A program made the translations under genes and the position numbers. From assembly GCA_963765145.1 (NCBI GenBank), contig CAVXVG010000004.1, positions 1-10,707 on the forward strand: 10,707 bases of DNA. The letters are read 5' to 3'. Below the pieces are notes generated by a model. It did no database searches. It saw nothing but the letters and a program-made list of their open reading frames with translations, and was not told the origin of the DNA. Source of the DNA: Parachlamydiales bacterium. GTDB taxonomy: Bacteria > Chlamydiota > Chlamydiia > Chlamydiales > JAJFMK01. Numbering within the stretch: position 1 is the first letter of the stretch; every line of letters starts with the position of its first letter. This document shows, in pieces, positions 428 through 10,195 of the stretch.

Positions 428-473
428 AGTACGCGCTAGCGTTTGGAGTGCTCTTCAAACGCTAGCGCGTACT
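428..473. terminator. Perfect 18-bp inverted repeat between convergent genes; probable bidirectional terminator or REP-like hairpin
   Basis: agtacgcgctagcgtttg (428..445) pairs with caaacgctagcgcgtact (456..473); 2 nt after the cupin stop. No clear U-tract on either strand. Confidence 0.6.
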
Positions 474-515
474 GAAAAAGGTTTTGAGTTGAGCTGAGGT
501 GAGGGAATTGGGATT
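456..515 (-). pseudogene. pseB: Orphan second copy of the pseB 3' end (direct repeat of 2876..2935)
   Basis: Ungapped match at offset 2420, 52/60 nt. 515..462 translates NPNSLTSAQLKTFFSTR* versus NPHFLTSAQLKNFFSTQ* in intact pseB. Confidence 0.9.
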
Positions 516-2613
516 ATGCGTCTTCGCCTTGAGGCCGTAGTGTTTTTACAAATGCGTCGATCTCTTCCTTCAGTTCAGGAATTGGCTCCAGGGAAGTAAT
601 GAATTGCCCTGTGGTTGGGTCATTCTTGTTTGATTTCAACGTCTCTTTAATCCAGTGTTCGTCGTAGATTTGGCAAGATGGGCGCGCTAAAACTGGATCT
701 ACCATAAAGTCACGACTAATAGGGCAAAGGTAGTCTTCTTCCTTCATAATGGGTCTTGTCAGTGTTGAAAAAATGTACTCAACATCGGCAATGAATGCAG
801 TGTCTTGAACACCTGCTAAAAGGGCACTTTTCAACTCGTTAGCATCAAGATAAAGGCTCCATAGCTTCCCAGATCGAAGAAGAGGAAGCTTTTTTTCCAA
901 CTCAGCTAAATACAATTTCTTTTGTTCGACTGTTGCACGCATTAGGATACGGCTCTCATTTCGAAAGTCCATACGCTTTTCTGTGAGGTATGTCACGAAA
1001 TCTTCCGGGGTCATGGTGAAGAGGCGGTCATGAAAAGCTTTTGCGTTCTCAGCTACCTGATTGAGTTGAGTAAAGCGTTCCTCTCTTTGTGATATGATCT
1101 TCATGGAAGCGACTTCGGTAACCACTTCTGCTCGATATTCCGGAGAAATCCGACTGACAGCCTCTACCATTTGAAGACTGAGGTCAGTCATATAGAAAAT
1201 GAGCAGGGGAGCAGCGTCGCTTACTGCTTGTGTGAAGTTCGTCAAACCTTTTTGTTTAACCCATGTGACGATAGCTTCAACATCTGAGTCAATTACACTA
1301 TCGTTCCTTCCCTGTAAAATGGCAGAGAGCGCCAAGACGGCCTGATCTTTAATAGTTGGATCGATCTGGCTGACAAGCCTCACAATACGGAGACGATCCG
1401 TCACCTTTGGATAGTTTTGTGTCAGGAGGGCGGCATCGCTTACCTCCTGCATAAAGGTCGTCGGCCCTCTTTCGCTGATCGATGTAACGAGAGACTCAAT
1501 TTCTGAATACCACAACCACCTCACTTCAGGCGCGCCTCCCTGAAAAATAGCAGAGATGGCCAAAACCATCTGGTCTCTCGCAGGTTGAGTGATCTTGCTG
1601 ATGGCTCCTGCGACAAACGCCTGACCTTTTCCTCCAATAGCTTGGAAAACGGGGGCTGCATCTGCTATCGCTTGTTGTCTGTCTGTTTGGGGGATCTTGT
1701 CGATCTGAGACAAGATATCGGCACGGGAGCTTCCCGAAGGTGTGGTCTGCCAAAGGGACGATGCATTGTTAATAAGTTGCTGTCTCTCTCGTTCAGGTAT
1801 CTTCATCATAGCCGTTACAAGAATTCTAGTTTCAAAGCTTTCGAGCCCCTGAAAAAGAGGAGCCAAAACTTTAAGAAATGGTTTTCGGCCGGTTGTGGAT
1901 ATGTGTTGGATCTCATCTTTTATCACGGAGATACGTATTCTAAGCTCCTCCCGATCTTCAAAGTTGATGTTTTGAACAAATGGCGCGACAAGTTCACCTG
2001 CCTCTTTTCCATCCCCTCCAATGACCTTGAAAAGGTTTACGAGTGCCTTGAGGAACAATCGACCCGATTGATGCGATTCTTCATCGCCCAATAGGATCAA
2101 CGAGTCGCATTTTCCACCATCATAGAGAGTCATGAGAAATTTAATGTTTTCTGGTTCAAAGAAATCTGTTATGTCAAGAAGCCTTAGAGCTCGCAGGAGG
2201 GCATGTAGTGTGTCAGGAGTGTTACCTTGGATAAATCGCTCGACATCTTCTATCTTACGCGTTGACAGGATGGAGTAGATTTCATAGGTATACCCATCTC
2301 CACAGGTGGACTTCATGAATACTTCAGTCGCTAGCTTATGGACGGCCCTTTTTTGGTAGTCAGGCAGATCAAGGGAATTGATTTTTTCAATGGTAGATTC
2401 TAGTTGAAAATTCTCAGGTAACGTCTCGCCATGATACTTCTTGACCTCTTGTGCTAATGCGGCAAGCCGACTATCGTTCTCGGACCAACCGATCCATGTG
2501 TAGAGGCGGCCTAAAAGCTCTTTTGGCTGAGGAGAGAAAAAGCTCGAAGGATCCACTAGCAAGCGACCTAGTGCGGGATAAGGGTTGTCCCCTGCTCTCA
2601 AAGTTCCAGACAT
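514..2613 (-). CDS. Eukaryote-like U-box E3 ubiquitin ligase with helical (HEAT/ARM-like) repeats; putative secreted effector
   Basis: C-terminal EDYLCPISRDFMVDPV...QIYDEHWIKETL...DPTTG...LEPIPELKEEIDAF matches the U-box consensus; internal repeats (IADAAPVF / VSDAALLT / VSDAAPLL; RDQMVLAISAIFQG / KDQAVLALSAILQG); GGAG RBS 6 nt upstream of ATG. Confidence 0.85.
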   Translation of the reverse strand: MSGTLRAGDNPYPALGRLLVDPSSFFSPQPKELLGRLYTWIGWSENDSRLAALAQEVKKYHGETLPENFQLESTIEKINSLDLPDYQKRAVHKLATEVFMKSTCGDGYTYEIYSILSTRKIEDVERFIQGNTPDTLHALLRALRLLDITDFFEPENIKFLMTLYDGGKCDSLILLGDEESHQSGRLFLKALVNLFKVIGGDGKEAGELVAPFVQNINFEDREELRIRISVIKDEIQHISTTGRKPFLKVLAPLFQGLESFETRILVTAMMKIPERERQQLINNASSLWQTTPSGSSRADILSQIDKIPQTDRQQAIADAAPVFQAIGGKGQAFVAGAISKITQPARDQMVLAISAIFQGGAPEVRWLWYSEIESLVTSISERGPTTFMQEVSDAALLTQNYPKVTDRLRIVRLVSQIDPTIKDQAVLALSAILQGRNDSVIDSDVEAIVTWVKQKGLTNFTQAVSDAAPLLIFYMTDLSLQMVEAVSRISPEYRAEVVTEVASMKIISQREERFTQLNQVAENAKAFHDRLFTMTPEDFVTYLTEKRMDFRNESRILMRATVEQKKLYLAELEKKLPLLRSGKLWSLYLDANELKSALLAGVQDTAFIADVEYIFSTLTRPIMKEEDYLCPISRDFMVDPVLARPSCQIYDEHWIKETLKSNKNDPTTGQFITSLEPIPELKEEIDAFVKTLRPQGEDA

Positions 2614-2628
2614 AGTGAACTCCTTTCC

Positions 2629-2674
2629 TGTAGCCTAAGCTCTCTTGGTTAACTGAGTGTTAAGAGCTTAGCTA
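2629..2674. repeat. Imperfect hairpin upstream of the U-box RBS, with ends resembling the palindromic element
   Basis: tagcctaagctct (2631..2643) / agagcttagcta (2663..2674); begins tgtagccta like the element terminus tgtagcYta. Confidence 0.45.
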
Positions 2675-2743
2675 TCCATCAGAGCATTGCATCTCCCTCA
2701 TTTTCAATGACTAAAGGCCTCAGCAGATAACGCAGAGAACCGA

Positions 2744-8871: not shown

Positions 8872-8930
8872 ATAAAGATCACCATCATCTCCATTTGGGG
8901 CATGTTGGTCTAAAACAGGGCCATATTCGG

Positions 8931-9443
8931 TTAAAAAAGGGCGACAAAAAGTTCTAATGTCCTTTTTCGACGCGTTTCATCTCCATTGGAAAACGCCTGT
9001 AACGCATGCTCTAAAGCCACGGGATTGAGTTTTTCCTGAAAAGCGCAAAGGCGACCAATCAGAAGGGCTTCATCTTCTCTTTTTCCAAAAGGTTCATAAA
9101 GCAACTTGAAGGTGGTGAAATCAGACAGCTGATTCAAAGATGCTTCATCCATGTGAGGGAACAGCTGGCGAAACTGTGCTTTATCGCTCCCCTTGTGATA
9201 TTCGATAAAATGACTGAATAAAGGATCCAGATCCTCTTTTTCTTCGCCTAAAGAAACATGTGTGCTATCACTCAGATAGACCCTAATCTTCCTGTCGCGT
9301 AAATCGATCTCAACTTCTCTGACATCTTGAAGCGAAACTTCACCATCCTTAAACAGCTTGTCTAACTTTTGGTCCAATAAAGTGTGGGTAGAAGCCCGGG
9401 AATAGCCTTTTCCTTATGCCGATATGCCTTGCCCAATCTCCAT
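8931..9443 (-). pseudogene. Probable N-terminal part of the AvrB-like gene, disrupted by an in-frame stop and a frameshift
   Basis: ATG 9443 gives MEIGQGISA*GKGYSRASTHTLLDQKLDK (TAA at 9416..9414) in frame with ORF 8931..9377, which stops in a T-rich run overlapping the open frame of 7807..8871. Confidence 0.55.
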
Positions 9444-9545
9444 CTATAACTCGTATTGAAAGATCCATAGAGGTTGTCCATTTCAGGTCTTTATTTCATT
9501 TCAATCCGGAGGCTTGTAAAGAATGGGTAAACCTTCGTATAACGG

Positions 9546-9689
9546 ATAAAAGATGTTGAGACGGCGCTGCGGATGCTGGCGAGAAAGGGGTATCATTTCT
9601 TGGAACTGGCTAAGAAGTTGAAGGAGAAGGGGGTAGAGCCAGGAGATATCGCCGAAGTGGTCAAAAAGCTACAAAAACTGGGCTACCTG
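9546..9689 (+). pseudogene. recX: Truncated recX (N-terminal part only)
   Basis: ETALRMLARKGYHFLELAKKLKEKGVEPGDIAEVVKKLQKLGYL fits the RecX N-terminal pattern (AL..L.RR..S..EL..KL..KG...I..V...L...GYLND); switches to parC sequence at GYL. Start uncertain (ATA 9546 or ATG 9573). Confidence 0.75.
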
Positions 9690-10195
9690 TTCAACGACGC
9701 ATTTTGTGGACATTATGGACCATGGACGATGGAAAGCTGCACAAGGTGGCAAACGTCGCTGGGCAAACGATGGCATTGCATCCTCACGGCGATGCCGCCA
9801 TCACCGATGCCCTGACCCACATGGCCAATAAAGGCTTTTTACTAGACCGTCAGGGGAATTTTGGTAACCTGTATACAGGCGACCCGGCTGCTGCCAGCCG
9901 TTATATTGAAACACGGCTATCTCAATTAGCAAAAGAGGCCTTGTTCAACCCCGATTTGATGGAATTTATCCCCGCCTATGACGGAAGAAGGGATGAGCCT
10001 GTTCGCCTTTCTGCCAAAATACCGCTTATCTTATTGCAAGGGGTCGATGGGATTGCGGTGGGGAAATGGCGACCCATAATTGAGGGGCCGGTCGAGACTA
10101 TTTCGCTGAAGGGAGTTTCGGCTAAAGGGATACGCCTCGCCAGCCGCCCCGTCAGCCGCATGACCATGGGCAAAGAACAGAAAGAGTTATTTTAA
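9685..10195 (+). pseudogene. parC: Internally deleted second parC copy (5808..6199 joined to 7510..7626); open as a 163-aa ORF
   Basis: 9685..10078 matches 5808..6199 with 4 substitutions plus 2 inserted nt; 10079..10195 matches 7510..7626 with 16 substitutions. Confidence 0.92.

Follow-up and report, generated by a model that had tools for sequence, protein, structure and literature searches.

Introduction

Homology-facilitated illegitimate recombination (HFIR), described in Streptococcus pneumoniae, Acinetobacter baylyi and Pseudomonas stutzeri, combines one homologous anchor with one joint at a short microhomology, typically of 3-10 bp, and involves no integrase (PMC3240628). The structure of the pseB-parE-parC locus of a Parachlamydiales bacterium, which lies in a 10,707-nucleotide stretch of DNA analysed here in full (the window), would fit such a process; no integrase was found there, and uptake genes are present in the genome. 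The locus differs in that HFIR has been described with a deletion of about the size of the insert (~1 kb), whereas here the gene end is kept twice, as the alleles of two lineages, and the genes are natural core genes (PMC3240628). Ends of pseB, parC and recX were found as spare, diverged copies, at three joints that are likely the scars of separate events. It is probable that these arose by repeated one-sided, homology-anchored integration of DNA from related lineages, either by HFIR or by a circle and a single crossover, and were later eroded.

In Escherichia coli, trimmed fragments that recircularised and entered by a single crossover gave partial duplications of 109-950 bp (Amarir-Bouhram 2011, PMC3240628). 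The partial duplication of a homologous gene is alike here, and such a route fits the order parC-cargo-recX′ followed by parC piece-recX; it was shown with identical plasmid-borne sequence, whereas 18 of the 38 remnants counted below have no identical run of 25 nt and later erosion must be assumed (PMC3240628). Old 3′ ends pushed downstream are also known from the C-terminal displacement of rhs genes (Jackson 2009, PMC2935791), where they are stacked as for recQ, cydB and an M48 peptidase gene here, and from effector-immunity modules of the Vibrio cholerae type VI secretion system (T6SS; Kirchberger 2017, PMC5361080). Displacement at T6SS modules has been ascribed to HFIR (PMC5361080), and rhs and T6SS displacement to circles or HFIR (PMC2935791, PMC5361080). 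There the variable part is the toxin tip of a dedicated locus; here the displaced ends are conserved housekeeping ends and the variable part is a separate gene. In place of the polymorphic toxin and immunity gene that mark displacement at rhs, contact-dependent inhibition (CDI) and T6SS loci, the displaced ends belong to pseB, parC, clpX, cydB, pheT, mnmE, gltX and others. The scars work like tip displacement but do not belong to that class.

Integrase-free hotspots hold cargo between core genes with recombined flanks (Oliveira 2017, PMC5635113), and an AvrB-like gene in the window, whose body is 0.9% from that of a relative, fits this pattern; the double crossover that renews such hotspots leaves no duplicated gene end, whereas the scars here would be those of one-sided events. 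Merodiploids of S. pneumoniae, in which transformation with same-species DNA yields a tandem duplication (Johnston 2013, PMC3784515), resemble the joint at 9685 of the window, except that they need long repeats (insertion sequence copies) at the junction, where 5 nt are found here. Illegitimate recombination has been described as a source of microdiversity (PMC2884548). In a literature search, with most subscription papers outside its coverage, no work turned up that counts displaced housekeeping-gene ends across a whole genome, in chlamydiae or elsewhere; the natural examples of one-sided events that were found are argued mainly at toxin loci.

Results

Displaced ends of parC and recX

The window is the entire contig C4 of genome G000 (2.68 Mb, 37 contigs; completeness 84.8%, contamination 3.26%), and its last 714 nt (9994-10707) overlap the end of a second contig of that genome, C36. 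It was compared with two genomes of the same genus, G001 (a single contig, from another assembly) and G002, and with L012, a relative's locus with intact pseB-parE-parC-AvrB-like-recX. A pattern scan of metagenomes gave 1 locus, and the runs with related DNA were nearly all peat metagenomes. Independent evidence consisted of Logan contigs of other strains from 4 runs (best share of words 0.35); bridging by contigs was judged among the matches listed, with 385 and 62 further pieces outside the listing. Since the remnant tails are short (42-114 nt), they were compared by distances and informative-site patterns, with G001 as outgroup. The right side of the locus has the following features.

3899..5710, + strand: parE, type IIA topoisomerase B subunit, 4.2% from L012
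5710..7626, + strand: intact parC, 6.7% from L012, with a tail that groups with L012; topoisomerase IV A subunit PRK09631 over cut-off
9540..9689, + strand: recX′, a 5′ remnant of recX, 7% from the complete recX on C36 and 15% from L012
9685..9689, + strand: joint of recX′ and parC codon 33, with a 5-nt microhomology (ACCTG)
9685..10081, + strand: copy of parC codons 33-164, 98-99% identical to parC 5808-6202, sister of the intact copy
10074..10081, + strand: joint of parC codon 164 and about codon 600, with an interrupted microhomology (4 nt), also at the end of C36
10079..10195, + strand: parC 3′ end of a more distant lineage, 101/117 against the intact end 7510-7626, 14-15% from both the intact tail and L012
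10206..10707, - strand: repeat and a broken insertion sequence (IS)-like helix-turn-helix transposase piece, running on into C36

The parE product is a GyrB/ParE-family protein that stayed below every cut-off. The right remnant is a two-part hybrid of a near-identical copy of parC codons 33-164 and a tail from a more distant lineage. The codon 33-164 copy carries 4 substitutions in 378 nt, of which 3 are synonymous and 1 is common to L012, and its informative sites group it with the intact copy (6, 1, 0). In the tail, 15 of 16 changes over 114 in-frame bases were synonymous. The intact and remnant tails differ from L012 at 6/114 and 17/114 positions, respectively; the intact tail groups with L012 by informative sites (5, 1, 1) and the remnant tail falls outside that pair. 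An earlier note on this DNA had placed the start of the right remnant at 10078. The parC tail that it described is real, and its count of 101/117 was exact, but the remnant starts at 9685. The same note had proposed that the outer ends were joined at microhomologies, which held in part, with the 5 nt at 9685.

In G001 and G002, recX is the native neighbour of parC (native order in G001: open reading frame (ORF)-pseB-parE-parC-recX). Past the tail, C36 carries an IS-like fragment, three ORFs without Pfam match and a complete recX 2.5 kb beyond the tail. Because recX follows parC in both relatives and the complete gene lies past the tail, recX′, which the earlier note had placed within the incoming block, is a third remnant and not cargo; it has no ATG where the recX of L012 starts. 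The right side requires two joints, between three pieces that differ in ancestry.

Pieces from runs X1, X2 and X8 end at 9685, and a contig of X1 continues through the whole recX to rluD. The ORFs between tail and recX (L001 7492-8619) were uncovered in contigs of 4/4 runs, which is not proof of absence. Where the window overlaps C36, the two differ by 9 substitutions together with 16 gap columns, a pattern suggestive of low-depth long-read ends. A 165-nt insert ahead of rluD (L001:6112-6278) was absent in contigs of 3/4 runs and in L012.

Displaced end of pseB and the U-box gene

On the left side the order is as follows.

48..425, + strand: 125-amino-acid ORF, native neighbour of the pseB 3′ end; its G001 ortholog holds the same place, 427 nt from pseB
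428..473, no strand: hairpin of a repeated REP-like family, its right arm overlapping the last codons of the pseB remnant
456..515, - strand: displaced 3′ end of pseB, comprising the final 17 codons with the stop, partly decayed, 52/60 against the intact pseB end 2876-2935
514..516, - strand: left joint, straddled by the stop codon of the U-box gene
514..2613, - strand: U-box protein of 699 amino acids, effector-like cargo (PF04564, E 7e-12, over cut-off)
2882..3886, - strand: intact pseB, mosaic, its 5′ part 3.8% and its 3′ part 13.7% from L012; PseB TIGR03589 over cut-off

The 125-amino-acid ORF, which had been labelled a cupin, matched no family over cut-off in profile scans. The earlier count of 52/60 for the pseB remnant was also exact. 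Over the 42 bases outside the hairpin, 36 match the intact gene, and the match is not chance, as nowhere else in the 2.68 Mb of the genome do more than 26/42 agree. The remnant differs from the intact tail of the window at 6/42 and from L012 at 16/42 positions, and its informative sites group it with the intact pseB of the window (3, 1, 0). Over the 49-nt match there were 1 synonymous and 3 replacement codon changes. The two tails had been described as similarly diverged, which holds for the raw divergence (13-14%) and not for its kind, the parC changes being nearly all synonymous and those of pseB mostly replacements.

The left joint was bridged by contigs of 2 of the 4 runs (X1 record 1, 438-1547, 21 differences in 1,110 bases; X2 record 9, 438-946, 6 in 509), which differ from the window by 1-2%. 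X1 and X2, both with the left joint, carry parC-AvrB-like-recX without the right joint among the listed contigs.

The U-box domain is complete and ends 8 residues ahead of the stop. A relative from JGI, P0002, has the same C-terminal residues and was the sole relative besides the query among 5,814 candidates searched. The N-terminal region is common to three G000 proteins at 27-33% (C5:119913-122441, C26:79415-82633 and C29:188387-190429), two of which also adjoin gene remnants. Ubiquitination genes are reportedly expanded in chlamydiae.

Displaced gene ends across two genomes

To find other diverged duplicated 3′ ends, as the earlier note had proposed, 1,279 genes shared by G000 and G001 as reciprocal best hits were each compared with their own genome, and many more cases were found in these two genomes of one genus. 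Two repeat-rich G001 genes and matches less than 100 nt from their gene were dropped before counting at gene level; recQ, hemN and an SDR gene in G000 show the scar and fall outside the count. Local fragment matches numbered 42 in 36 genes of G000 and 46 in 28 genes of G001. Same-strand copies of the 3′ end lay downstream for 18 and 12 genes, respectively, and upstream for 1 and 1, both of which coincide with a neighbour's remnant; none was inverted. For the 5′ end, 4 and 1 genes had a copy upstream, and 1 and 1 had one downstream. After filtering, one inverted match was left overall. The 38 end matches had a median length of 65 nt and a median distance of 1.9 kb (up to 17 kb). The longest identical run was below 20 nt in 8 and below 25 nt in 18 of them; such runs tend to be longer than random placement would give (mean p 0.29), a figure biased by BLAST detection that does not separate HFIR from crossover.

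By their Pfam families, from which the gene names are read, the hosts include clpX, cydB, pheT, an LptF/G permease, an M48 peptidase, dus and clpB in G000 and mnmE, gltX, hemN, a peroxiredoxin and pdxH in G001. Codon changes were 178 synonymous to 106 replacement in 31 G000 matches and 61 to 56 in 22 G001 matches; the comparison with neutral decay assumes ~27% synonymous. Because of these ratios, most of the divergence appears to have arisen in working genes, with an excess by gene in lptF/G (32/36 codon changes) and cydB (38/47). The earlier view that the remnants are alleles of other lineages, not decayed copies, with core genes as homology anchors, is supported.

Between gene and remnant were found genes for U-box, AvrB-like, RING, kinase, ankyrin, TPR, LRR, Sel1 and SidD-like proteins, which are predicted from their domains to be secreted effectors, together with toxin-antitoxin genes, one IS110 transposase and many ORFs without family. 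A 624-amino-acid protein (G000:C12:17011-18885; L149:9011-10882) combines a SidD-like catalytic domain (E 2e-26) with a DUF294 nucleotidyltransferase-like domain.

Several loci carry more than one remnant with different cargo between. In G000, recQ has three at 86-96% identity (C21:91601-101937, L164), cydB three (C29:211320-215483, L162) and the M48 peptidase gene two (C12:9173-20837, L149). Remnants of hemN-like 3′ ends with different cargo occur in both genomes (G000:C26:57821-63541, L153; G001:C1:35870-38384, L014), which suggests that hemN is a recurrent hotspot. A composite mnmE remnant in G001 (C1:1818224-1821806, L103/L104) has 695-869 joined to 1139-1359 at a 7-nt microhomology and still abuts the next gene. 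Elsewhere in G001 (C1:2178287-2183839, L121/L122), a direct repeat of 320 nt at 99.6-100% spans a YjbH-family/hydrolase gene junction, its two copies separated by three cargo ORFs; the event is likely very recent.

Mosaic ancestry of the AvrB-like gene

7807..9460, - strand: AvrB-like gene, in pieces (AvrB_AvrC PF05394 over cut-off), a single 553-amino-acid ORF in L012

The frame of this gene is broken near 8930 and 9400, where the breaks may be real or read errors. Its body is 0.9% from L012 (15/1,592), and its 5′ end with the spacer 14%. Complete recX is 12% from L012, and the next genes 4.2%, 0.4%, 7.1% and 5.9%. From pseB to the AvrB-like gene the central block is a mosaic against L012 (0.9% to 14%), and the near-identical body amid flanks at 4-15% suggests that the cargo spread by ordinary double crossover.

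Palindromes

2744..2893, no strand: palindrome and adjoining repeat, of a genome-wide family; not an event boundary
7622..7773, no strand: second palindrome, its inner part absent in relatives

In G000, 58 places resemble 2744-2829 and 114 resemble 2744-2893; many extragenic palindromic copies of this kind mark REP/REPIN-type families. The palindromes had been read as part of a mirror architecture of the locus. This did not hold, as they belong to that 58-copy family and, after parC, L012 and contigs of 4/4 runs carry merely a short hairpin (joint 7641-7725). The two window palindromes share 71 identical nt (2756-2826 and 7632-7702), with other copies at ~80-95%, and this identity may reflect recent insertion or conversion. 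An IS200-like Y1 transposase ORF (PF01797) lies beside palindromes at G000:C5:119137-119679 (L147), and a second similar-looking ORF at C21:218940-219392 has repeats on both sides; both are possible movers of the family.

Discussion

These findings show a real set of scars, earlier misread as one event, that is a variant of a known process. In the mechanism proposed here, a fragment of a co-occurring lineage would pair with the chromosome via RecA inside a shared core gene. Its other end, without usable homology, would be attached where a few bases match, whether directly (HFIR) or as a circle entering by one crossover. If the joint lies ahead of the point where the shared gene ends, the gene end would be duplicated as the alleles of two lineages, with strain-specific genes in between; any joint that removed an essential gene would not persist, so that duplications would survive. 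Long repeats would later be excised or eroded by internal deletion (parC here, mnmE in G001) to short diverged ends, and survival would favour short or diverged repeats, long identical ones excising the cargo. At parC, in the simplest order of events, a joint between near-identical strains may first have duplicated the tract from codon 33 to recX′, and a second joint may then have added the tail-IS-ORFs-recX tract of a more distant lineage. Cargo once lodged between core genes could spread by ordinary double crossover. Both parents are known for three joints, with a microhomology of 5 nt at recX/parC, of an interrupted 4 nt at parC/parC and of 7 nt at mnmE in G001. Given this account, direct HFIR has a slightly better than even chance and a circle with a crossover a slightly less than even one.

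Delivery may have been by transformation (comEC, dprA) or by F-type conjugation (traC), judging from genes recognized by sequence. Both comEC and mutS were found in 4/4 genomes searched, and dprA and F-type traC in 3/4, with open frames in G000, G001 and G002; F-type TraC is encoded in all three genus genomes searched (G000:C1:20037-21128; G001:C1:1734263-1735324; G002:C71). A chlamydial ComEC homolog is said to be linked to gene transfer.

The structure is symmetric: gene and cargo come from one lineage, the remnant and the gene after it from a second. As seen in one genome, it is what a gain of cargo and a failed replacement by an empty allele would both leave, so that effector gain by this route is a possible reading; the stacked remnants fit either direction, the same order being predicted. 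A deletion of about the size of the insert is absent if the cargo allele came in (a net gain of kilobases) and roughly present if the empty allele did. The parC tail is more distant than either neighbour, which mildly favours the tail as the incomer, opposite to the polarity first proposed; an earlier clean import into the recipient would predict the same pattern.

Several points weigh against one-sided integration as the common origin. Neither right-hand joint was bridged by a listed independent contig of the 4 runs; that at 9685 is present in one contig (C4) only, and at 10078 just 1-2 bases match perfectly. In laboratory work HFIR is a rare event whose deletions are usually about the size of its inserts (PMC3240628), unlike the net extra DNA that these loci hold. 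Duplicated contig stretches at ~99% in G000 make strain mixing possible, and the synonymous share in G001 is just 52%. Some rows of the scan likely represent fragments of tandem paralogs, or duplications that are near-identical (lexA, YjbH/DLH at 99.6-100%), and not cross-lineage scars, and with only genomes within the genus scanned the scar rate cannot be called exceptional.

Alternative explanations

Decayed islands, made by integrases whose attachment sites duplicate gene 3′ ends and that have since been lost, are an unlikely source of the scars. The 3′ bias is strong, attachment of prophage e14 at icd duplicates the 3′ end of the gene, and the known island targets mnmE/trmE and dus occur in the list. 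The targets are ~30 different, unrelated genes, however, with copies of 36-442 nt at 77-100% identity, and 8 of 38 remnants have no identical run of 20 nt; such variable targets, lengths and identities do not suit the short identical core of an attachment site in a preferred target. No integrase matched among the 11 window ORFs scanned with Pfam, as the earlier note had seen between the remnants. The 140 and 46 proteins scanned at remnant loci likewise included no integrase of the tyrosine or serine type, and the cargo no remnant of one. Tyrosine recombinases of the genome lie at least 17 kb from the 22 remnant genes on contigs holding both, and the cargo is often one gene.

The earlier note had proposed a single ~9.2-kb block from one donor, attached through microhomologies at its outer ends. 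Order and orientation are native in both remnants, their raw divergence is similar, and the two loci that this proposal led one to look for exist, an empty one in G001 and a donor-type one with parC-AvrB-like-recX, its right half, in L012. The proposal is largely refuted, and now very unlikely, by the left joint in X1 and X2, whose parC-AvrB-like-recX lacks the right joint among the listed contigs, by the three ancestries at the right, where the 5′ piece groups with the intact copy and the tail lies outside the intact copy and L012, and by the mosaic centre. Nor, against expectation, were the remnant tails closer to the empty-locus relative than the intact ones (parC, 27 differences for the remnant and 28 for the intact tail in 114; pseB, slightly further, 12 against 10 in 42), a comparison that is uninformative because G001 is outgroup to both tails.

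A tandem duplication that arose within one genome, then decayed and afterwards received its cargo, with no foreign DNA involved, would suit the 395-nt parC piece at 99% identity and the few genome-wide cases at 99-100%. It is highly improbable in view of the synonymous excess in the parC tail, lptF/G and cydB, and even in the 99% piece 3 of 4 changes are synonymous and one is common to L012.

There is equally slim reason to regard the right-hand structure as an assembly or read chimera of mixed strains. The overlapping parts of the window and C36 are not identical, just one contig contains the 9685 joint, and ends of G000 contigs are duplicated elsewhere at 98-99.5% (C19/C25, C15/C20/C21, C2/C25/C29, C23/C29), as repeats or as two strains in the bin. 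Yet the 10078 joint stands at two contig ends, and the internally deleted parC at the end of C36 requires that an intact parC exist elsewhere, along with a joint of some kind upstream. The repeated parC piece has its own substitutions, recX′ lacks its start codon, the left joint is independently bridged, and G001, a single contig of another assembly, has the same type of scar including a composite remnant.

Least probable of all are palindromes as ends of cassettes moved by a REP-associated or IS110-type transposase: they adjoin both cargo genes with 71 nt identical, and two other loci have IS200-like and IS110 transposases in or close to them, but the family has 58 genome copies, just 3 of the 22 remnant genes lie close to one (two of these in the window), relatives hold the cargo with a short hairpin, and transposition leaves the diverged gene ends unexplained.

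Significance

HFIR and related one-sided events are well known from the laboratory, and the mechanism is not new; recurrence in two genomes and the shared AvrB-like allele add to the usefulness of this variant. It is a tentative and rather doubtful extension that one-sided integration at core-gene ends is a main first route of effector-like genes in the genus, with internal deletion of the spare copy as a ratchet. Excision through the 99% repeat would leave a parC of 609 nt; if the ratchet holds, the essential parC would lock its cargo in, and from stacked remnants one could read the history of gene flow between intracellular lineages that differ by 5-15%. With at least a dozen housekeeping-gene scars in each of two genomes of one chlamydial genus, environmental to judge by its genes, there is a natural record that can be counted. 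Such scars point to frequent exchange of chromosomal DNA among the lineages of a bacterium that is presumably intracellular, which includes a near-identical effector-like allele in backgrounds 4-7% apart.

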